From: an uncultured Clostridia bacterium
Lineage (GTDB): Bacteria; Bacillota; Clostridia; Christensenellales; Borkfalkiaceae
Length of the DNA: 64,000 nt
Assembly (NCBI GenBank): GCA_944354265.1
Contig: CALVPX010000052.1
Location: forward strand, 60,177 to 124,176
Direction: 5' to 3'
Every line of letters begins with the position of its first letter. Position 1 is the stretch's first letter. The notes beneath the pieces are model-generated. The model made no database searches. It was not told the DNA's origin and was given only the letters and a program-made list of their open reading frames with translations. Below are positions 1 through 60,100 of this stretch, one piece after another. Both the position numbers and the translations under genes were made by a program.

Positions 1-60
1 TTGATATAATGTTAACGACAAAAATAAAAACATTTTTTTAATTCGGAGGATTAATTAGTT

Positions 61-1077
61 ATGGCAAATGTTAGAGTTGCTATCAATGGTTTCGGTCGTA
101 TCGGCCGTCTGGCTTTCAGACAGATGTTCGATGCAGAAGGTTATGAAATCGTAGCTATCAACGATCTTACCAGCCCCAAAATGCTGGCTCATCTTTTGAA
201 GTACGATTCAGCTCAGGGCAGATATAAGTATGCCGACAGCGTTGTCGCCGGCGACGATTATATCACCGTAAACGGCAAGACCATTAAAATCTATGCTGAG
301 AAGGATGCCGCAAACCTTCCTTGGAAGGAAGTAGGCGTAGACGTCGTTCTTGAATGCACCGGCTTCTATACTTCCAAAGAAAAGGCTATGGCTCACATCA
401 ACGCAGGCGCTAAGAAGTGCGTTATCTCCGCACCCGCCGGCAACGACCTTCCCACAATTGTTTACAGCGTAAACGAAAAGACGTTGAAGCCCACCGATAC
501 CGTCATTTCCGCCGCAAGCTGCACAACTAACTGCCTCGCTCCAATGGCTGACGCTCTCAACAAGCTCTGCAAGATCAAGAAGGGCTACATGACGACTATC
601 CACGCCTACACCGGCGATCAGATGATTCTCGACGGCCCTCACCGCAAGGGCGACTTAAGAAGGGCAAGAGCAGCTGCAGTTAACATCGTTCCCAACTCCA
701 CGGGCGCTGCAAAGGCTATCGGCCTCGTTATTCCCGAGCTCAAGGGCGTTCTCGACGGTTGTGCACAGCGCGTTCCCGTTCCCACCGGTTCGCTTACTCA
801 GCTCATCGCAGTTTGCGAAGGCGAAATCACCGCTGAAGAAGTCAATGCTGCAATGAAGGCTGCCGCTTCCGCATCCTATGGCTACACTGAAGAAGAAATC
901 GTTTCTTCCGACGTCATCGGCATGACCTACGGCTCGCTCTTCGACGCAACACAGACAAAGTGCATGCCTATGGGCGATGGCACAACCCTTGTAAAAGTGG
1001 TTTCTTGGTACGACAACGAAAATTCTTACACATCGCAGATGGTAAGAACAATCAAGTACTTCGCCGAATTAAAGTAA
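61..1077 (+). CDS. gap: type I glyceraldehyde-3-phosphate dehydrogenase
   Basis: N-terminal NGFGRIGR Rossmann motif, catalytic SCTTNCLAP motif and C-terminal WYDNE. GGAGGA RBS about 10 nt upstream of the ATG. Confidence 0.95.
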
Positions 1078-6169: not shown

Positions 6170-7852
6170 ATGGATTATAAAAAGTATATTGCCGGTAAAA
6201 TTAACGTGGAGGGAGTGAGCGCGGAAGAGATTGCCTCCGCAATAACTCTGCCCCCCAATTCACAGATGGGCGATTACGCATTGCCCTGTTTTAAATTTGC
6301 AAAAGCGCTCCGCAAAAGCCCCGTCTTGATTGCCCAACAGCTCGCGGGGGAAATTGCTGCTGACGATATCATAAGCGAAGTGTCCGCAGTAAACGGCTAT
6401 CTCAATTTCAAAATAAATAAAGAGGGCCTCGCCCGCGAGGTTCTCGCCGCAATCTCCGAACAGGGCGAAAAATACGGCTCGTCAAATATGGGCGCGGGCA
6501 AAACTATCTGCATAGATTATTCGTCTGTGAACATAGCAAAGCCCTTCCACATAGGCCATCTTTCAACCACCGTTCTCGGCAGTGCGCTGTATAAAATTTT
6601 TAATTTTCTCGGGTATAAAGCCGTAGGTATAAATCACCTCGGCGACTATGGCACGCAGTTCGGCAAACTCATCAGTGCCTATAAGCATTGGGGCAACAGG
6701 GAGGAGGTTGAAAAGGGCGGCATCCATGCCATAAACGACCTCTATGTGCGCTTCAACAACGAGGCCGATGAGGAGATGGAAAAGGAAGCCCGCGAGTACT
6801 TCCGCCTGATAGAAAGCGGCGATAAGGAGGCCAACGAGCTGTTTGATTGGTTTAAGCAGCTCACATTGGACTATGTAAAAAAGATATACGAGCGCCTTGA
6901 CGTGCACTTCGACAGCTACGCCGGCGAAAGGTTTTATACCGATAAAATGCAGCCCGTCATCGACGAGCTCAGGCAAAAGGGTCTGCTCAAGGAGAGCAAC
7001 GGCGCGCAGATTGTCGACCTTGAGGAGTACGGAATGCCGCCCTGCCTTATTCTGCGTTCGGACGGCGCCTCGCTCTACGCCACGCGCGACATAGCTGCCG
7101 CCATCTACCGCAAAAACACCTATGATTTTTATAAGTGTCTCTATGTGGTGGCATATCAGCAGAACCTGCACTTCAGGCAAATTTTTAAGGTGCTCGAACT
7201 CATGGGCAAGGAGTGGGCAAAGGATCTCGTCCATGTGGCATACGGCATGGTTTCCCTTGAGGACGGGGCAATGTCCACCCGCAAGGGCAAGGTCGTATGG
7301 CTTGAGGACGTCATCTCAAAGTGTGTGGAAAAGGCGTATAAGGTAGTCAGCGAAAAAAATCCCGACCTTGAAAATAAAGACGATATAGCCGAAAAAGTCG
7401 GCGTAGGCGCCGTAATATTCGGCGCGCTGTACAACAATAAAATCAAGGACATAACCTTCTCCTACGACAAAGTTCTTTCCTTCGAAGGGGAAACGAGCGT
7501 ATACGTTCAGTATACCTGTGCGCGCGCCGCTTCCGTAAATGAAAAGGCGGGGGACTACAATCCCGTCATACCTGAAGAGCTGTCGCTCACCGACGAGGAG
7601 TTCGAAGTTGTAAAGACTCTCGCCACCTTCCCCGAGACTGTAATCGACGCAGCAGATAAATATGAGCCGAGCTATATCGCCCGCTATGCAGTAGACCTCG
7701 CGCAAAAATTCAATAAATTTTACTTCGACTGCAAAATATTGACGGCGGAGGAGGGCGTCAAAGATTTCCGCATTGAACTTACAAAGGCCACTCTACGCAC
7801 GCTTGAAAACGCTTTGGGCCTGCTCGGCATAGGCGTCCCCGAAAAGATGTAA
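6170..7852 (+). CDS. argS: arginine--tRNA ligase
   Basis: HIGH-type motif PFHIGHL, a class I core and the Arg-tRNA synthetase anticodon-binding C-terminus. The start is moved to the ATG at 6170 (MDYKKYI...) instead of the upstream TTG of the ORF track. Confidence 0.93.
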   Translation: MDYKKYIAGKINVEGVSAEEIASAITLPPNSQMGDYALPCFKFAKALRKSPVLIAQQLAGEIAADDIISEVSAVNGYLNFKINKEGLAREVLAAISEQGEKYGSSNMGAGKTICIDYSSVNIAKPFHIGHLSTTVLGSALYKIFNFLGYKAVGINHLGDYGTQFGKLISAYKHWGNREEVEKGGIHAINDLYVRFNNEADEEMEKEAREYFRLIESGDKEANELFDWFKQLTLDYVKKIYERLDVHFDSYAGERFYTDKMQPVIDELRQKGLLKESNGAQIVDLEEYGMPPCLILRSDGASLYATRDIAAAIYRKNTYDFYKCLYVVAYQQNLHFRQIFKVLELMGKEWAKDLVHVAYGMVSLEDGAMSTRKGKVVWLEDVISKCVEKAYKVVSEKNPDLENKDDIAEKVGVGAVIFGALYNNKIKDITFSYDKVLSFEGETSVYVQYTCARAASVNEKAGDYNPVIPEELSLTDEEFEVVKTLATFPETVIDAADKYEPSYIARYAVDLAQKFNKFYFDCKILTAEEGVKDFRIELTKATLRTLENALGLLGIGVPEKM

Positions 7853-10506: not shown

Positions 10507-10523
10507 TGTAATATTAAGATTTA

Positions 10524-11399
10524 TCAATATTTAATTACGCAAGCTGCGGCGAGAGCGCCGGGGCCGATATGTACTGCAACGCTCAGCGACAGCGGGTCGA
10601 CAAACGTGAATTCCACATCGGGGAAGGCGGCAATCAAATCTGCTTTGAACGACATGGCTTCCTCAAGGCACTGTGTGTGCGCAACGCAAACCGTCATTTT
10701 GCCTGCCTTGCGCTCTTCGGCAAAGCGTGTTTCAAGGTCATTTTTAATGGCTGCAATCATGGTTGCCTTGGCGTCGCTCATCTTGCGCACTTGGGCAAAC
10801 TTATCAAGCCTTTCGCCCTGTATCTGAAGCACGGGTTTGATTTTCAAAAGCGTGCCTATAGCTGCGGCGGCGGGGGTAAGCCTTCCGCCCTTTTTAAGAT
10901 ACTTCAAAGTGTTAACTGCAATATAGATGGAGGAGGTGTGCGCCGTCGCCATGAGCCAATCATAAATTTCTTTGGCCGTCTTGCCCTCCTTGATCATCTT
11001 CATGGCGTCTACAACCGTCTGCTTCTGCGTAACAGAAACTCTGTGGTTATCCAAGGCGTAAACTTTGCCTATAAATTCAGGCTCTGTCTCAGCCATATGC
11101 TTGATTACGAGGGCAGTTTCCGAAAGTCCGCTCGAAAGGGGCATATATAGAATTTCATCGTATTCCTTTAAAATTCTTCTCCACCTTTCGGCCACGTCGT
11201 AGGGGTTGGGCTGCGATGTAGAAACTTTGGCGTTGTCGTCGGTCAGATATTCGTAGAATTTGTCGATGGGCAAATTCTCTTCCTGAAAGTATTGTTCGCC
11301 GTTTACAAGAATGGGGGTAGGCTGAATTTCTATGCCGAGTTTTTCAGCTTCTTCCACCGTATATCCGCAGTTGCTGTCAGTTACGATTTTAATGCTCAT
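10524..11399 (-). CDS. DegV family fatty-acid-binding protein (copy 1)
   Basis: MSIKIVTDSN... start with an AAGGAGAG RBS and the conserved LKYLKKGGRL block. Length is 291 aa. Confidence 0.9.
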   Translation of the reverse strand: MSIKIVTDSNCGYTVEEAEKLGIEIQPTPILVNGEQYFQEENLPIDKFYEYLTDDNAKVSTSQPNPYDVAERWRRILKEYDEILYMPLSSGLSETALVIKHMAETEPEFIGKVYALDNHRVSVTQKQTVVDAMKMIKEGKTAKEIYDWLMATAHTSSIYIAVNTLKYLKKGGRLTPAAAAIGTLLKIKPVLQIQGERLDKFAQVRKMSDAKATMIAAIKNDLETRFAEERKAGKMTVCVAHTQCLEEAMSFKADLIAAFPDVEFTFVDPLSLSVAVHIGPGALAAACVIKY

Positions 11400-11499
11400 G
11401 TTCTCTCCTTGTGCGCATATGCGCGCATGCAATTTCTAAGTCAATTATATATCATGCATGCGCAAATGTCAATACGGAAATAGAGTTGCGATAAAAGTA

Positions 11500-12366
11500 T
11501 CAGTATTTAACGGTGGCGGCAACGGCAAGGGCGCCGGGGCCGATGTGACAGGAAACGCTGAGGGACAGGGGGTCTATATAAGTAAACTCCACGTCGGGGA
11601 AGGCTTCCTTGATTTCGTCGCGGAAAATTTCAGCTTCTTCAAAATTTTGCGTGTGCGCAACTGCGAGGGTCATTTTACCGGCCGAACGAAGCTCTTTAAA
11701 CCTCGTCTCAAAGTCGTGCTTGATGGCATTTATCATCGTCGTCTTGGCGTCGGCAATCTTTCTGACTTTAGCGTATTGGTCAAGCTTTTCGCCCTGAATC
11801 TGAAGGACGGGCTTGATTTTCAAAAGCGTGCCTATCGCCGCAACGGCAGGAGTAAGCCTGCCGCCCTTTTTAAGGTACTTAAGCGTGTCTACCATGATGT
11901 ATATGCTCGACTGCATTTTTGTCTGCATAAGGAAATCGCGCACTTCCTCGGCGGTCTTGCCGTCGGCAAGCATATTTTGGGCGTCCTCAACGCTTTGGCG
12001 CATGGTTATCGATATCCTTTGGTTGTCAATAACATACACCTTTCCGCTATATTCGGTCTCAGCCAAATGTGTGAGGGTATGGCAGGTCTCTGACAGGCCT
12101 GAGGACATGGGAATGTGTATAATTTTGTCGTACTCTTTTAAAATTTTAGTCCAAAGTTCGCCAACGTCGTATGCGCTCGGTTGCGAGGTCGAAACCTGCG
12201 CGTCAGATTTAAGCTTTTCATAGAATTGCTCCTGCGTAAGCGAAATGTCTTCAAAGTATTGTTCGCCGTCAATAAGTACCGGCATGGGCACAACGTAAAC
12301 TCCCATTTCTTTAGCCATGGATTGGGTGATGCCGCTGTTGCTGTCGGTTACGATAGCTGTCTTCAT
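11500..12366 (-). CDS. DegV family fatty-acid-binding protein (copy 2, tandem paralog)
   Basis: MKTAIVTDSN... start. It aligns colinearly with copy 1 and shares an identical run LKYLKKGGRLTPA.AAIGTLLKIKPVLQIQGE. Confidence 0.9.
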   Translation of the reverse strand: MKTAIVTDSNSGITQSMAKEMGVYVVPMPVLIDGEQYFEDISLTQEQFYEKLKSDAQVSTSQPSAYDVGELWTKILKEYDKIIHIPMSSGLSETCHTLTHLAETEYSGKVYVIDNQRISITMRQSVEDAQNMLADGKTAEEVRDFLMQTKMQSSIYIMVDTLKYLKKGGRLTPAVAAIGTLLKIKPVLQIQGEKLDQYAKVRKIADAKTTMINAIKHDFETRFKELRSAGKMTLAVAHTQNFEEAEIFRDEIKEAFPDVEFTYIDPLSLSVSCHIGPGALAVAATVKY

Positions 12367-15163: not shown

Positions 15164-15292
15164 AATTGCACCGATAGTGTAGGGAGCAATTAAAAATATA
15201 ATTAAAAGCAGTACAGCTAGTATTGCTGAAACTATAATTATCTTCTTCCTTGTTTTCCTCTTCTTGTCTCTTTACAATTAGTGATTAATAAT

Positions 15293-15321: not shown

Positions 15322-15511
15322 GTAGTTAGATAAAAAAAGTATTGTTTGAAAAATACGCAGAGAAGAGAATGCCGCCGAAACCCCTTAGGGGGTGGTACGG
15401 GGAAGAGGATTCGCCGCTTGGGCGCGGCGCACGGTTGACAGCCCAAGCCGAGGGCTGTCAAGTCGTCGGTAGAGACCTCCGACCTGCGCAATAAGTTGCT
15501 TGTGTTTCTCA

Positions 15512-15635
15512 AGCGGCGCAATGTCAACGCCGCTTTCGGTCACCGTTCACGCGTGACTTTGCGTTTACTCATCTCGCAAGGCAAAACAGCAGGTTTCTGC
15601 TGTTTTGAGAATGCCTTGCTCGTCCTCGAATCCTC
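15512..15635. ncRNA. unclassified structured-RNA-like element, copy A (homolog of 32020-32144); strand unresolved
   Basis: Aligns colinearly with copy B. There are conserved unpaired blocks and four helices whose sequences differ but stay complementary. The ORFs crossing it run into a terminator and a tRNA gene. Confidence 0.5.
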
Positions 15636-15650
15636 TATTCTCTCGCCAAG

Positions 15651-15690
15651 AAAAAGCCGCGGATATAACAAAAAGTTATATCCGCGGCTT
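15651..15690. terminator. terminator hairpin immediately 3-prime of tRNA-Ser (usable on both strands)
   Basis: 15-bp stem AGCCGCGGATATAAC/GTTATATCCGCGGCT. On the minus strand it is followed by TTTTTCTT, and on the plus strand by TTT. Confidence 0.8.
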
Positions 15691-15780
15691 TGGCGCAGAG
15701 AAGAGGATTCGAACCTCCGTACGTGTTCCCACGTAACACGATTTCGAGTCGTGCGCATTCGACCACTCTGCCATCTCTGC
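15691..15780 (-). tRNA. tRNA-Ser (anticodon CGA), class II with long variable arm, CCA encoded
   Basis: Manual cloverleaf: acceptor GCAGAGA/TCTCTGC, anticodon stem CACGA/TCGTG with loop CTCGAAA, variable-arm hairpin TACGTG-GGAA-CACGTA, T arm GGAGG-TTCGAAT-CCTCT, discriminator G and CCA. Confidence 0.9.
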
Positions 15781-31955: not shown

Positions 31956-32019
31956 TCCGCAATTGGTTGGTCCTCTTCGGTAACAGGTAATACAATTCCC
32001 GCATTGGTTGTTGCCTCTC

Positions 32020-32144
32020 AGGCAACGCAAGGATAACGTTGCCTTCGGTCATCGTTCGCACCTACTGTTGTGCTCACTCATCTCGTGCGGCAAAACAGCG
32101 GGTCGCCGCTGTTTTGATAACTCCGCACTCGTCCCACGATTCCC
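32020..32144. ncRNA. unclassified structured-RNA-like element, copy B (homolog of 15512-15635); strand unresolved
   Basis: Same block order and spacing as copy A. Helices AGGCAACG/CGTTGCCT, GCAC/GTGC, TGCGG/CCGCA and CAAAACAGCGG/CCGCTGTTTTG. Confidence 0.5.
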
Positions 32145-32161
32145 GCATTGTGACTATAAAA

Positions 32162-32197
32162 ACATAAACAGCCCTGCATTTGCAGGGCTGTTTATGT
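32162..32197. terminator. terminator hairpin immediately 3-prime of tRNA-Arg (usable on both strands)
   Basis: 17-nt arms ACATAAACAGCCCTGCA/TGCAGGGCTGTTTATGT. The minus strand has a T-rich tail (TTTTTATAG) and the plus strand has TT. Confidence 0.75.
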
Positions 32198-32198
32198 T

Positions 32199-32273
32199 TG
32201 GTACTCCCGGCGGGAATCGAACCCACAACGGCCCCTTAGGAGGGGGCTGTTATATCCATTTAACTACGGAAGC
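32199..32273 (-). tRNA. tRNA-Arg (anticodon CCT), CCA encoded
   Basis: Manual cloverleaf: acceptor GCTTCCG/CGGGAGT (two G-U pairs), D arm GTTA-AATGGATA-TAAC, anticodon stem GCCCC/GGGGC with loop CTCCTAA, T arm GTGGG-TTCGATT-CCCGC, discriminator A and CCA. Confidence 0.85.
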
Positions 32274-32348
32274 AAAAATTTACCTTAATATAATACAACA
32301 ACTAATAAAAAAAATCAATAATTTTAATGCTTAAAAGTATAAATTTAT

Positions 32349-32380
32349 ATTGCCGCCCGACAAATTTGTCGGGCGGCAAT
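32349..32380 (-). terminator. terminator after the pot operon
   Basis: ATTGCCGCCCGAC-AAATTT-GTCGGGCGGCAAT hairpin, 4 nt beyond the potD-like stop. Confidence 0.75.
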
Positions 32381-32384
32381 AAGT

Positions 32385-51629: not shown

Positions 51630-53150
51630 ATGTTCAATGATCAGGGAGTCAACAACATATCGGGCAGAGCCAGAATCAAAGTAATTGGCGTCGGCGGCGC
51701 CGGTAACAACGCCGTCAACCGTATGTTGGAAGCAGGCATCAACAGTGCCGAATACATAGTCGTAAATACCGACAGCCAGATTCTCGCACTTTCAGCCTGC
51801 GAAAATAAGGTTCAGATCGGCAGCCAGCTTACAAAGGGTCTCGGTGCCGGCGCTGATCCCGATATCGGCAGAGCTGCAGCCGAAGAGAGCAAAGATGTAT
51901 TAACCGACCTTATTAAAGGTACGGACCTTTTGTTCATAACGGCAGGCATGGGCGGCGGCACAGGTACGGGCGCCGCACCTGTAATCGCAAAGATTGCAAG
52001 GGATATGAAGATCCTCACCGTTGCCGTTGTTACCGAACCTTTTGCCTTTGAAGGTAGAAAGAGATTGGAAAACACCGCAAAGGGTCTTGAAAATCTTAAA
52101 AAATATGTAGATACCCTTGTAATTATTCCCAACGACAAGATAAGGACTGTCGTGCAGAAGAATACGCCTATGGTAGAAGCTCTGCGCGTTGCAGACGAAA
52201 TACTCAAGCAGGGCATAAGGGGCATCACCGAGCTTATCGTCAACCCCGCGCTCATCAACCTCGACTTTGCCGATGTCAAAGCCATTCTCAAGGATAGGGG
52301 CATTGCTCACCTCGGCGTAGGCGTCGCTAAGGGCGACAACAGAATTATCGAAGCCGTCCGCGTGGCCGTAAACAGCCCTCTGCTTGAAACGACTATTGAG
52401 GGCGCACGCGGCGTCATCCTCAACGTCGTCGGCGGCAACGACCTCACATTCGAAGAGGTTGCCGATGCGGCAGAACTTGTCCGCAGCGTTGTAGACGCGT
52501 CTGCAAACATCATCTTCGGCGCACGCATCGACCCCAATGTTCAGGATGAGGTTGAAGTTACCGTCATCGCAACCGGTTTCCCCGGCTTTGAAACGAGAAA
52601 GGAAGATGATCAGCAAAAGTCCTACAATAAGTCGCTCTATGGCAATCAGCAGAGCCTCGGCAGCGGCCGTATGCCTATAAGCAACGATCCTTACTTCGGA
52701 CAGCGTCAGTCATCCCTTTCGTCCAACCCCTTGCATCAGGCGTCCGCTCAGGCACAGCAGAATGCGCGCAATCAGCAGCCTGCACAGTCTTTCTATACCC
52801 GTCAGGCTCAGCAGCCCGCACAGACGCAGAATACCGTTCACACTTCCGCATATCAGCAGCAGGGTTATCAGCAACCTCAACAGCCCCAGCAGCAGGGTTA
52901 TGTTCAGCAGCCTCAACAGCCTCAGCAGGGCTATACTCAGCAGGGTTATGTTCAGCAGCCTCAACAGCCTCAGCAACAGGGCTATGCTCAGCAGGGATAT
53001 CCTCAGCAGCCTCAACAGCCTAGGCAGCCTGCTCAGCAGCAGTATTCTTCTCAGTCGGCTGAAGATGTGACCATTGAACGCCCCAGCGATAAAAACGTTC
53101 CCAAGTTTGCCCGCCTTCTCAAGAACCTCGGCAGACACGGCAACGAATAA
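51630..53150 (+). CDS. ftsZ: cell division protein FtsZ with very long Q/P/Y-rich linker
   Basis: GVGGAGNNAVNRM, the tubulin signature GGGTGTGAAPVIA and NLDFADV. The C-terminal peptide is DKNVPKFARLL. Length is 506 aa. Confidence 0.95.
   Translation: MFNDQGVNNISGRARIKVIGVGGAGNNAVNRMLEAGINSAEYIVVNTDSQILALSACENKVQIGSQLTKGLGAGADPDIGRAAAEESKDVLTDLIKGTDLLFITAGMGGGTGTGAAPVIAKIARDMKILTVAVVTEPFAFEGRKRLENTAKGLENLKKYVDTLVIIPNDKIRTVVQKNTPMVEALRVADEILKQGIRGITELIVNPALINLDFADVKAILKDRGIAHLGVGVAKGDNRIIEAVRVAVNSPLLETTIEGARGVILNVVGGNDLTFEEVADAAELVRSVVDASANIIFGARIDPNVQDEVEVTVIATGFPGFETRKEDDQQKSYNKSLYGNQQSLGSGRMPISNDPYFGQRQSSLSSNPLHQASAQAQQNARNQQPAQSFYTRQAQQPAQTQNTVHTSAYQQQGYQQPQQPQQQGYVQQPQQPQQGYTQQGYVQQPQQPQQQGYAQQGYPQQPQQPRQPAQQQYSSQSAEDVTIERPSDKNVPKFARLLKNLGRHGNE
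52855..53040 (+). repeat. tandem in-frame repeats inside the ftsZ linker
   Basis: Repeated units encoding QQGY(V/A/T)QQPQQPQQ(Q), visible as near-identical runs of CAGCAGGGTTATGTTCAGCAGCCTCAACAGCCTCAGCA. Confidence 0.8.
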
Positions 53151-57108: not shown

Positions 57109-60100
57109 GTGTGTTTCGTGAAGAAAAACGATAACAATAAACATTCATATATTTTCACGCGGGAAACTTTCGGCATGACGTTGCTGTTATTCAGCGCGCT
57201 TTTGCTGTTGATTTTGGCGACTAATGATATGATTTTTGCCGCTCTCGGGCAGGCCGTCTGTACATTCATGTATGGCACTTTCGGCTACGGAAGTTATCTT
57301 GTCATCGTTGGTTTGGTAGCTTTAGGCGTTTGGCTCGTCTTCGGCAAAAAACCTAAGGTAAGGGTGCGCACGGTTGCAATGGCAAGCGTTACTCTCGCCG
57401 TGTTGTTCATGCTCTTTCATGCCGTCACTACGCGCAATTTTGCAATGGACAGCTTCGGTTCATATCTCGGGCAATGCTATTCGGCGGCAGAGCAGGGCTT
57501 TTCGGGGTACACATTCGGCGGCGCCCTCTCAGGGTTGCTCGTCTATCCGGTAGCCCGCGGCACGACTTTCATAGGCGCCTATGTAATTTTTTCAGTTTTA
57601 TCAGCAGTGTGCCTGTATCTGACCTTTCTCTTTGTCCGCGGCGATATCATTTCACGCGGAGGAAAGGCAAGGGTTGTCAATTTCCCCCGTGCGGCCAAGC
57701 GCAGCGAAGTTGGCAGTCAAGAACAGACGGTTGCCAACGATAACGCATACACCGTCGATTCCGGCAATCAGATAGTAAATAATTTTCATCCCGTTCAGCA
57801 GGATCAGCCTGTCTATACGGATGACATGTCTCAGCAGGGCTATGCCCCGCAGGACTTTGATACCAATCAAAATTTTGCTCCGCAGAATAATTATTTTGCC
57901 CCTCAGCAGGATTATTACGCTCCTCAGCAAGAACCCGCGCAGCCTTCTAACATGACGTATGCTTCCGTCTTTAATCAGATAGCTTACGGAAACGGCAGTT
58001 CGCGTGAGGATGAGGACGACAAATATTCGCGGAAAAATCTCGGCAGGAAAATTATATTTGAAAAGGGTGAGTTTGCGGCTGAAAGCTACCGTAGAAATAT
58101 GATTTTCGATGAGGATTCGTATTTCAATCATCCTGTAAAACCTCCCGAGGAAAATACGGGCAAATCGTCATCAAACGGTTCGGTTTCGTCTTCCAATATT
58201 GCGCAGCAGCCGCAGGCTCAGCAGGTTCAGCCTCAGCAGCCTCCTGTGCAGCAATCTCCCGTTCAACAGCAACAGATACAGCCTGCGCAATCTCAGGCAT
58301 ATCCTCAAAGCTATTCTGAAAGCTACTCAGAAGAGGTGGAAAACCGCGATCAGGGGCCGGCTACGCCTTCATATATCTACGGCGACAGACCAGCCGACAG
58401 CCTCGACGACTATGTGCCCAATGGCGGCGCATATGACGATGATGCATATTTCGGCGGCTCATCGTCCTACGACGATGTAAATTACGGCAACGATTACGGC
58501 GTCGATGATCATTCCGATTATACGCAGGACGATTTCTCGTCCTTCGGCAATGCTGCGCCCGAAAATAATTTTGATACCCGCAGACAGGAAGATTTTTCGG
58601 GGCGGAGGACTGAACAGCCTTCGAGAGACAGGTTGAATTCGGATATATTGGGCGATTTTTCGCGGCGTTCGGCAGAGCTCGACGGTAGCTCTTTCGGCGA
58701 CACAGCGAGGCGCTCAACACCTGAACTCGGTAACCGCTCCTTCGGCGACACGGCGAGACGCTCGACGCCTGAACCTGACAGCCGTTCTTTCGGCGACAGC
58801 AATAGGCGCGCCGACAAGATTAATAGTGACGAGGTCGCAGATAGAACGCTGTCCGACCGCAGTATGAGGGTCGACAGATTGGGCGACAGGGATACCTTGC
58901 GCTCCGACAGCGACTTTTTGAGTACTACGTCAGGCAAAGAAGAGGGGGACGATGTAGACGATATTTTTGTCAGACACAGCGAAACGCCTGTCAGCCGCGA
59001 ACCCGCCATGCCCGACGACGGTATAAACAGTGCTGCCGACAGCTTTATGGCGCCTTCAGGCAAGCGCGACAAGCCCTTGCTCTCCCGCCGCGACGACAGC
59101 AGAGAAAATATATTTGACGGCGATGACGACGATTATCTTACTGAAGACGTCCCGGATCTCGGTATGCGAAGCCTGCGTTCCGACGGAGCACATGCAAATG
59201 GCAGCCGCTCGGACGACATGAGTTCTTTAAGGCGAAACGAGCTTCCTGTAGTTCCCGACGAGAAAACTGACAATGTTCCCGCCGTTCCTGTACGCTCGTC
59301 TGCAAAGCAAAAGGAACAGCCGGCTGCGCCCGTTCAGGAAAAGCCGAAACATGTTTGGAAAAAATATGTGCGCCCTACGCTCGACCTTCTTGCCGACTAT
59401 CCCGAAAATAATAATGCAAATGTCAGCGAAATCGAGGACAATAAAAAATTAATTATCGAAACATTGGAAAATTTCCGCATCGCTGCACACATTTCCGATG
59501 TCATCGTCGGCCCGGCAATCACGCGTTACGACGTTATAATAGAGGACAGGACGAACATTAAAAACGCGATGCGCTATCGCGAGGCCATAGCTATGGCTTT
59601 GATGAAGGAAAACGTTACGGCCTATCTCAACTATTCCAAGGGCGCCATTTCCATTGAAGTGCCCAACGGCAAGCGTAGCATTGTAGGCCTCAAGAGTATG
59701 TTGAAGAGCAACGAGTTCATCAACTGCAAGCCCAACACGCTCACATTTGCACTCGGTAAAAATGTAGAGGGCAAGCCCAATTGCCCCGATATCACAAAGA
59801 TGCCTCACCTGCTCGTTGCAGGTACTACTGGTTCAGGTAAAAGTATTTGTCTCAGCGCGCTCATCATAAGCCTGCTGTATAAATACGGCCCCGACGAACT
59901 GCGTTTTATCCTCGTCGACCCCAAGCAGTCTGAGTTCATCTCTTATGAAAACCTGCCCCATCTGATTGTAAACGAAATAATCAGCGACGTAGACAAGGCT
60001 ATTAAGGCGCTCAATTGGGCAATAAAGGAGATGGAACGCCGCTATGCGCTCTTCAAGGAAATGACCCTCGCCGGCACGCTCGTCAAGAACATTAACGAGT

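Follow-up and report, generated by a model that had tools for sequence, protein, structure and literature searches.

A structured sequence of ~120 nt that occurs twice in the genome segment analyzed here, each time beside a tRNA gene, belongs to a family of non-coding, three-hairpin interspersed repeats of uncultured gut Clostridia that had not been described before. The segment (hereafter the window) comprises 64,000 nt from an uncultured Clostridia bacterium of the Borkfalkiaceae (assembly GCA_944354265.1, contig CALVPX010000052.1, positions 60,177 to 124,176). Our preferred reading, held with modest confidence, is that this repeat, which we call the core, is a small, non-autonomous structured element similar to miniature inverted-repeat transposable elements (MITEs), and that the arms which adjoin it are duplications or fold-backs derived from the target. 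The tRNA-like arm itself is most likely local DNA copied from the neighboring gene and not a programmable part. An initial annotation of the window had described core, arm, terminator and tRNA as one conserved module in which the arm varies with the partner tRNA. The two copies and their tRNAs are:

15505-15625, plus strand: core copy A, full-length match to covariance model R1 (120.1 bits, E = 1e-36)
32014-32134, plus strand: core copy B, full-length match to covariance model R1 (111.6 bits, E = 5e-34)
~15507-15622, plus strand: element proper of copy A (TCTCA...CTCG), its limits set by filled/empty pairs at other loci
~32016-32131, plus strand: element proper of copy B
15691-15780, minus strand: tRNA-Ser(CGA), called by ARAGORN (Rfam tRNA, 58.9 bits)
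32199-32273, minus strand: tRNA-Arg(CCT), called by ARAGORN (Rfam tRNA, 59.9 bits)

These two tRNA genes are the only ones in the window and both are convergent to the plus-strand core, which ends in CTCGTCC (15619-15625 in copy A, 32128-32134 in copy B) at a distance of 65 and 64 nt, respectively, from the tRNA 3' end. This is the spacing reported in the initial annotation, whose features were all recovered in place. The covariance model search found no full-length core other than A and B in the 64 kb, and a pattern for the core matched the window twice, compared with no match in 100 shuffles.

That the core is a real, constant and structured unit, as had been proposed from these two copies, is confirmed by its structure and covariation. 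The unit is ordered as TCTCA, hairpin H1, TTCGGTCACCG (a mini-hairpin), hairpin H2, CTCATCTCG, the long bulged hairpin H3 and CTCG. Over the 84 full-length copies described below, standard pairs occupy 97.4% of pair cells, 22 of the 27 pairs have changed on both sides, and the covariation score is 0.446 as against 0.148 in shuffles, none of 500 of which reached the observed value. Copies A and B by themselves differ by compensatory changes in all three hairpins. The conservation of the linkers among copies selected by pattern is partly due to ascertainment, an effect eased by 18 copies found by the model only; the covariation that such copies add lengthens H1 and H2, while CTCATCTCG stays nearly invariant.

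A two-block pattern representing the unpaired linkers of the core was run on GTDB contigs with one genome per species. It matched 60 loci in ~25 metagenome-assembled genomes (MAGs), all of them uncultured gut Clostridia from rabbit, human, mouse, chicken and deer, including Candidatus Scatosoma, Candidatus Coproplasma and 'Christensenella sp.', and three more loci were found in JGI metagenomes. The hosts are fragmented MAGs and were sampled as 8-kb loci, referred to below by L numbers. A covariance model built from 26 diverse copies and searched against 465 kb gave 84 full-length copies, with up to three per locus and tandem cores at L063. Copy number is uneven, reaching at least 10 in some genomes and one in others, and many copies are cut by contig ends, as is the case for high-copy repeats. 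The specific pattern found no match in viral contigs, and the core sequence was not found in plasmid collections, phage collections or the literature; a loose viral scan returned two matches inside coding sequence, which we attribute to chance. Rfam searches of both window loci and 20 others, at the gathering thresholds and at E ≤ 10, left the core unmatched (models for omega-RNA/HEARO, tmRNA, T-box and ribozymes included) and reported only tRNA, 5S, LSU and an L10 leader.

Several known structures were tried and rejected. For a tmRNA or tRNA-like domain, ARAGORN reports no tmRNA, and the acceptor-like end pairing of copy A is explained by duplicated tRNA fragments. For a tRNA intron, ARAGORN finds none with introns allowed, and the pseudo-tRNA halves have no T arms. 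A hammerhead-like reading of the reverse strand (GAUGAG...GAA), examined by eye, is missing the invariant C3 and U4, and a pseudoknot between 5' UUCUCA and UGAGAA shows no covariation across subfamilies.

The limits of the element come from filled and empty sites. All loci were searched for both flanks of each copy lying close together, which yielded more than 20 filled/empty pairs and a discrete insert, (T/G)TCTCA...CTCG. Representative sites are (caret, insertion point; single brackets, insert):

L044: empty CAGGGTT^TCCCTGCG, filled CAGGGT[TCTCAA...TTCG]TCCCTGCG
L015: empty GAGAGAA^TCCCCCCGTGG, filled GAGAGT[TCTCAA...CTCG]TCCCCCCGTGG
L026 and L039: empty GGAGGAA^TCCCCC
L051 (5S rRNA): empty GGGCAATTTCCTA^TCCTCCC, filled GGGCAACGATTT[TCTCAC...CTCG]TCCTCCC

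Empty sites also take the forms GGGTT^TCCCTG, GAGAGAA^TCCCCCC and, at 5S rRNA, CTA^TCCTCCC. The element has its 3' boundary at CTCG, and therefore the arm is flanking DNA and not part of the element. In most hosts the TCC that follows is target DNA, as is probably true of the TCC at 15623-15625 (copy A) and at 32132-32134 (copy B); the right junctions are the same in both window copies (CTCG|TCCTCGAATCC and CTCG|TCCCACGATTCC). The usual landing place is directly 5' of TCC(C/T), often in hairpin-forming DNA and in or beside a loop. This target motif (GGA on the other strand) is present on one side only, the conserved side being the right one. Terminal inverted repeats are absent, since the ends TCTCA... 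and ...CTCG are not complementary; the filled/empty pairs show no target-site duplication; and flanking repeats of at least 11 nt, ranging from 11 to 26 nt and more, accompany only ~13 of 50 copies. Short, non-coding, present in many copies (84) and represented by both filled and empty sites (>20 pairs), the family resembles a MITE in these respects. In a nested case (L057, positions 4-106, minus strand), one core is broken in the CTCATCTCG linker after CTC and continues as the 5' end of another core (TCTCAAAAGG...). This interrupted linker resembles a would-be circle junction, CTCG|TCTCA.

The initial annotation had taken the core to be a tRNA-specific module and had named copies away from tRNA genes as evidence to the contrary. 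Such copies prevail in the family: only seven of 61 pattern matches in other genomes lie within 1 kb of a tRNA. Two further copies adjoin 5S rRNA genes, and most of the remaining ones, especially in high-copy genomes, are embedded in other interspersed repeats. Targeting of tRNA 3' ends is not the rule either, because the piece duplicated elsewhere may be the 5' part of a tRNA, a 5S segment or the start codon of a protein gene, in direct or inverted orientation. The claim that the arm tracks its neighbor fared better, in that the phenomenon recurs, in low-copy genomes, at tRNA-Arg(ACG), tRNA-Val(GAC), 5S rRNA and the start of an rlmB-like gene, where the duplicates remain matched to the live gene, but the arm is flanking DNA where a variable module had been proposed.

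The repeats that accompany the core were recorded in passing. A second interspersed repeat, widespread and ~110 nt long (CAATTTGCGCATACCTGCGCC...GTGAAT..GCCCGCGATT..AATCGCGGGCAGAGG), is not in Rfam. Many cores have it directly at their 3' end, in one orientation or the other, and it is found at L054 (~6590-6700) and L029 (4810-4900), in the 3' flanks of L011, L035, L050 and L062, and upstream at L061. A third repeat (GCGTGTCGCCGC...TTTCTTTATTGCG...) occurs in the upstream regions of L020 and L052 and at L051 (3230-3315), where it is the 86-nt spacer that separates duplicated 5S segments. A ~130-nt host repeat of rabbit-gut MAGs (GTCATTCCGAGCGATTGAG...GTGGTGGTAGGGAGC...GGGGGACCCGTTCG; L026, L007, L055, L039) is often the target of the core, and its variant at L026 (~5586) reads GGAAGTCTCACACGTGG, with TCTCACACG common to the core 5' end.

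Beside stable-RNA genes, the core repeatedly sits within partial copies of the gene. At L051, a 148-nt stretch comprising the 5S rRNA 3' end and terminator is present twice; the copy belonging to the gene is intact while the core replaces 7 nt in the other, and therefore both 'arms' belong to a duplicated target, one on either side of the insertion. Six species (L009, L070, L040, L018, L059 and L065) have a core at tRNA-Arg(ACG) that stands between sequences antisense to tRNA positions 48-29 and 26-1, with the intact tRNA gene 26-60 nt away. Duplicates of tRNA-Val(GAC) occur at L013, L041 and L072, an 11-13-nt direct repeat is found at the start codon of an rlmB-like gene (L024, L027, L049, L071), L064 carries 24 nt of 5S, inverted, ahead of its core, and several cores have short fold-backs next to them, such as CCAAAGGC-TC-GCCTTTGG in L040.

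The tRNA-Arg(ACG) locus has the same insertion point in all six species, and its core is seemingly orthologous. As this shared point lacks TCC, a single old insertion is likely. The core has since diverged, with different H3 types, its structure being kept via compensatory changes, and the adjacent spacers cannot be aligned. The flanks are only 0-2 mismatches from the local tRNA, although the acceptor and anticodon stems differ between species. Near-consensus sigma-70 promoters lie upstream of the pseudo-5' half (L018, 1998-2026; L040, 825-853; L013, 5025-5053; L070, in the 3' flank), and judging by these promoters the tRNA-Arg and tRNA-Val precursors of these species should begin with a leader of ~250 nt that includes the core's complement. 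As a separate observation, direct repeats of tRNA 3' ends, 17-20 nt long, are present at L070 (~6690-6810), after the tRNA-Arg of L040 and after the tRNA-Ala of L013, ~120 nt past the tRNA terminator and with no core between; they resemble att-like scars of other tiny insertions.

In the window, the elements that surround the two cores are:

15626-15648, plus strand: arm A, TCGAATCCTCTATTCTCTCGCCA, an inverted copy of tRNA-Ser positions ~55-76 including CCA, which runs into the left terminator arm
32136-32150, plus strand: arm B, with an exact inverted match of 10 nt to the tRNA-Arg T arm at 32137-32146 (CGATTCCCGC)
31992-32006, plus strand: upstream direct-repeat copy flanking core B, ACAATTCCCGCATTG, 14/15 identical to 32136-32150
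15653-15669/15675-15691: perfect 17-bp hairpin of locus A, starting at the last A of the tRNA-Ser CCA, with a U-run on the tRNA strand
32160-32178/32181-32199: perfect 19-bp hairpin of locus B, starting at the last A of the tRNA-Arg CCA
15356-15370 and 15393-15413, plus strand: two partial tRNA-Ser 3' ends in direct (att-like) orientation, with a small hairpin between them, able to pair with arm A
15414-15504, plus strand: hairpin-rich spacer specific to locus A, with tRNA-Ser fragments on one side and core A on the other, and with self matches only in blastn-short
31957-32013, plus strand: spacer specific to locus B, from the stop codon of an epimerase gene (31955) to core B, with no relative elsewhere
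15820-15792: promoter-like site of tRNA-Ser, TTGAAT-17-TAAAAT

Both arms repeat the T-loop-to-3' part of their own tRNA, inverted and beginning in the T loop, and the terminator hairpins of the two loci are unrelated in sequence; on these points our analysis agrees with the initial annotation. Arm A matches the tRNA-Ser sense strand over 11 + 6 + 5 bases (22) with one 1-nt indel, and 15626-15641 and 15697-15712 form an inverted repeat that is 88% complementary. The locus A hairpin is the terminator of tRNA-Ser and also the center of a palindrome, and the locus B hairpin has the same role, so that at both loci arm, terminator and tRNA 3' end make up an imperfect palindrome of ~90 nt. The suggestion that a read-through transcript could fold the arm against the tRNA is borne out by prediction: in the lowest-energy structure predicted for the tRNA-strand transcript (z = -9.9 for A and -6.8 for B), the arm pairs with the 3' half of the tRNA, which would displace the acceptor and T arms of the tRNA. 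Locus A holds three partial copies of the tRNA-Ser 3' end, two direct and one inverted, and in the predicted fold of 15355-15695 (z = -9.5) the partial copies and arm A make the closing helix. Compared with all loci by blastn-short, the window spacers and arms have no relatives at any other locus; the core alone is common. Two further observations concern these loci. A 61-nt hairpin-rich insert (15414-15474) seemingly splits, in the T loop, an antisense partial copy of tRNA-Ser (15393-15413 ... ACCTCCGAC at 15475-15484), and a perfect 15-bp hairpin (TATTGCCGCCCGACAAATTTGTCGGGCGGCAATA) lies at 32348-32381, between the tRNA-Arg promoter region and a convergent gene for a solute-binding protein.

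Presence or absence among strains had been put forward as a check. Copy A is present in seven of seven strains of the same species, with four single-nucleotide polymorphisms, and no empty orthologous site was found for either window locus, the nearest epimerase homologues being 66% identical and not syntenic.

If the core is a small mobile repeat, as we prefer to think, the arms would be target DNA, and insertions at essential, single-copy genes for stable RNAs or at one essential protein gene would persist only where an intact copy of the gene is left; for this reason the core would be met within copies of its neighbor, either partial duplicates in direct orientation or inverted fold-backs. 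The window would record two independent insertions at the outer edge of a long palindrome composed of the tRNA T-loop-to-3' end, the terminator and the inverted copy. A break beside a strong hairpin may be repaired by fold-back priming or template switching, by which the palindrome would grow outward. Natural switch points would be the terminator hairpin and, in the T loop, the TTCGAA/TCGA sequence, which is self-complementary. We propose that such repair would produce inverted arms that abut the element, begin in the T loop and leave the 65/64-nt spacing. The mobilizing enzyme would act in trans. By analogy, the geometry of a short one-sided target, sub-terminal hairpins and neither inverted repeats nor duplication suggests HUH-type single-strand or circle-junction recombination. 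Partial tRNA gene copies are a known by-product of mobile-element integration (PMC9897764), and minimal gene-less elements with structured ends and no duplication are known for IS200/IS605 (PMC10055086). Among the ideas first raised for these loci, a miniature mobile element is nearer to the evidence than an RNA that controls its tRNA, while the more specific version, an integrative element dedicated to tRNAs, fails.

Several points weigh against this reading. The case for mobility is drawn from comparisons of sites, and no autonomous partner or transposase was found in the 8-kb MAG loci. The left junction is imprecise, with 1-7 nt replaced, the insertion points at tRNA-Arg and tRNA-Val are without the TCC motif, and no empty orthologue of either window locus was found that would bear out the fold-back origin suggested for the arms. 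Moreover, in 11 of 12 single-copy genomes the core lies in local duplicates (five of tRNA-Arg, two of tRNA-Val, one of 5S and three of rlmB), a pattern that a purely selfish element does not predict. Maintenance of the tRNA-Arg(ACG) locus also looks as though it needs gene conversion or selection, unlike that of a decaying dead insert.

By resemblance, the core appears closest to HUH-type single-strand elements such as the palindrome-associated transposable elements (PATEs), which are gene-less IS200/IS605 derivatives mobilized in trans by a Y1 HUH transposase (PMC3119063, PMC10055086). Like PATEs, which it matches in size class (~100-400 nt), the core is non-coding and multi-copy, has neither terminal inverted repeats nor target duplication, carries conserved sub-terminal hairpins and a short motif at one end only, and enters hairpin or single-strand-prone targets. 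Its constant structured part stops exactly at the variable flank, as in an omega-RNA scaffold with its guide. Unlike in PATEs, however, TnpA, TnpB and IscB were not seen near any core copy in the 8-kb pieces of fragmented MAGs, the three hairpins are dissimilar to one another, the left junction lacks precision, TCC lies 3' of the core and not 5' of the left end on the strand favored by wobble pairs (a preference seen by sequences but about even by independent events), and the omega-RNA/HEARO models of Rfam do not match. A TnpB-type guide logic was rejected, there being no conserved motif 5' of the putative targets. The bridge or seek RNA of IS110 shares a single trait with the core, TC at both junctions (K-TC-TCAC ... 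CTCG-TC-C); the core differs in that no open reading frame, for a DEDD recombinase or otherwise, adjoins it and in that its target is conserved on the right alone, where IS110 systems recognize a specific target on both sides of a core dinucleotide.

The REP/REPIN, BIME, ERIC, Correia/NEMIS and RUP repeats and the Rickettsia palindromic elements are likewise short, intergenic, highly structured and nested, with copy numbers that vary between related genomes, and REP/REPIN-type repeats are often found at gene 3' ends beside terminators, as is the core. Compared with REP, the core is longer and has three distinct hairpins joined by invariant linkers (of the CTCATCTCG kind); unlike MITEs of the Correia/ERIC type it is without inverted-repeat ends, and unlike REP-type repeats it is repeatedly embedded in partial tRNA or 5S gene copies.

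The antisense flanks at tRNA-Arg(ACG) have the layout of a guide RNA or trans-acting ribozyme and therefore raise the alternative of a functional RNA. The core would then be a non-coding RNA scaffold whose flanks, on the core strand, are antisense to a neighboring stable RNA or mRNA start and guide its processing, modification, decay or sequestration, with the antisense pieces of locus A masked by the sense arm and with multi-copy spread as a secondary development. We consider this rather unlikely. Compensatory changes preserve the structure even in single-copy genomes, and the tRNA-Arg(ACG) arms, antisense to 48-29 and 26-1 with 2 nt left unpaired, follow species-specific substitutions; most copies, however, are flanked by other repeats that are contiguous in empty sites. 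Both L051 arms and the 24-nt arm of L064 are antisense to 5S, and antisense pieces occupy the core strand in five of seven contexts, but arms A and B of the window are sense to their tRNAs, orientation relative to the neighbor is variable, and a guide acting in trans need not adjoin its target. Wobble pairs favor the core strand by 35 to 13 when counted by sequences, an asymmetry that is lost (about even) when independent events are counted. In the window, the closed fold of copy A (z = -9.5) pairs antisense with sense tRNA pieces, a promoter-like site is present at 15264-15292 and terminators follow both copies; the only strong promoters of L018, L040 and L013 (11/12, 11/12 and 10/12), by contrast, drive the opposite strand and form part of the tRNA leader.

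Less probable still is a miniature integrative element, a remnant similar to the cis-mobilizable elements (CIMEs), in which a tyrosine or serine integrase encoded elsewhere joins a small circle with tRNA genes and the tRNA-like pieces are attL/attR. Integrative elements and CIMEs leave behind fragments of tRNA genes of the attR type (PMC9897764; Williams 2002 cited there), and tRNA fragments usually arise in this manner (PMC9897764). The partial tRNA copies beside an intact gene, the T-loop breakpoints and the direct 3'-end repeats of locus A recall such fragments, the last lying 280-335 nt past the tRNA with the core between (15356-15370 and 15393-15413 as compared with 15691-15711). Direct repeats of 17-20 nt just downstream of tRNAs at L070, L040 and L013 (tRNA-Ala) are of the same kind, the tRNA-Arg, 5S and rlmB layouts match what a small circle with a 'filled' copy of the target would leave after integrating by a single crossover (Campbell-like), and the TC found at either junction could act as a core-dinucleotide crossover. 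These features, like the direct repeats of locus A, speak for a site-specific mechanism mediated by circles. Yet the 'island' enclosed is only ~300 nt and without an integrase: Pfam calls covering the genes up to 10 kb on either side of copy B and up to 2.5 kb on either side of copy A include no integrase or other recombinase, and no integrase was seen near any of the 84 copies. The targets are very diverse and mostly not tRNAs, the part copied differs (at other loci it comes from the 5' part of a tRNA, from 5S or from a start codon), repeats where present vary in length from 11 to ~140 nt and most insertions have no flanking repeat. The window arms are inverted where direct copies would be expected, and locus B has no direct tRNA repeats, only the inverted 10-mer and a local 15-nt direct repeat.

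We give little credence to a more specific form of the RNA alternative, in which a guide-type RNA of bacteria would have the core as its scaffold, either protein-binding or catalytic, and arms that are kept complementary to the neighboring RNA with a gap of 2-7 nt. Guide RNAs that combine a constant scaffold with antisense arms include the archaeal and eukaryotic box C/D and H/ACA RNAs and trans-acting ribozyme designs. At tRNA-Arg(ACG), tRNA-Val and 5S, the core is similarly flanked by antisense arms that leave 2-7 target nt unpaired. In contrast to these RNAs, it has no box motifs or partner protein, its arms are contiguous target DNA, the element adjoins its target and the window arms are sense. 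If the proposal were true, the neighboring tRNA, 5S rRNA or mRNA start would be cleaved, modified or sequestered under its direction. Bacteria would then have an equivalent of the guides built from a scaffold and antisense arms, and this one would spread in the manner of a mobile element, by copying its target into its own flanks.

That the similarity of the window arms is coincidental, T-arm-like words being common and a GC-rich flank by a terminator happening to match, is very improbable: arm B is only a 10-mer and the local-duplication scores of 11 and 10 (30-nt flank against ~2.8 kb of surroundings) fall inside the control range of 7-15, but the arm A match spans 23 nt including CCA, runs into the terminator and occurs in seven independent assemblies, both arms start at the same T-loop position with spacings of 65 and 64 nt, and far longer matches of the same kind (26, 48 and 93 nt) exist elsewhere. 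By our estimate, about 0.002 chance matches of a 10-mer to a 75-nt tRNA on either strand would be expected. Arm B is marginal by itself; the arms owe their significance to arm A, to a geometry that is identical in the two loci and to the recurrence of the phenomenon elsewhere.

The genes neighboring the cores are housekeeping genes, among them DnaX, SigH, the rlmB-like methyltransferase and aminotransferases, and no recurrent family of open reading frames was found near cores in other genomes. Elsewhere in the window, glutamine/proline-rich coding repeats (CAGCAGGG..TAT..CAGCAGCCTCAACAGCC) occur in two genes (52839-53024 and 57830-58269), and adjacent paralogous segments (10522-10929 and 11498-11905), 976 nt apart, are 72-74% identical.

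The family is a small structured non-autonomous repeat, unusual in that it reproducibly lies within partial copies of neighboring stable-RNA genes, and it adds a very well supported structured element, for which Rfam has no model, to the repeat and non-coding RNA inventory of abundant uncultured gut Clostridia. It has practical consequences, as these cores break MAG assemblies and the partial tRNA and 5S copies around them can be mis-called as genes. Patterns in which an arm copies its neighbor beside tRNAs can stem from target duplication or fold-back and not from a programmable module. The tRNA-Arg(ACG) locus, at which the core and both flanks are maintained in six species, offers a tractable case for the domestication of mobile repeats in tRNA transcription units.

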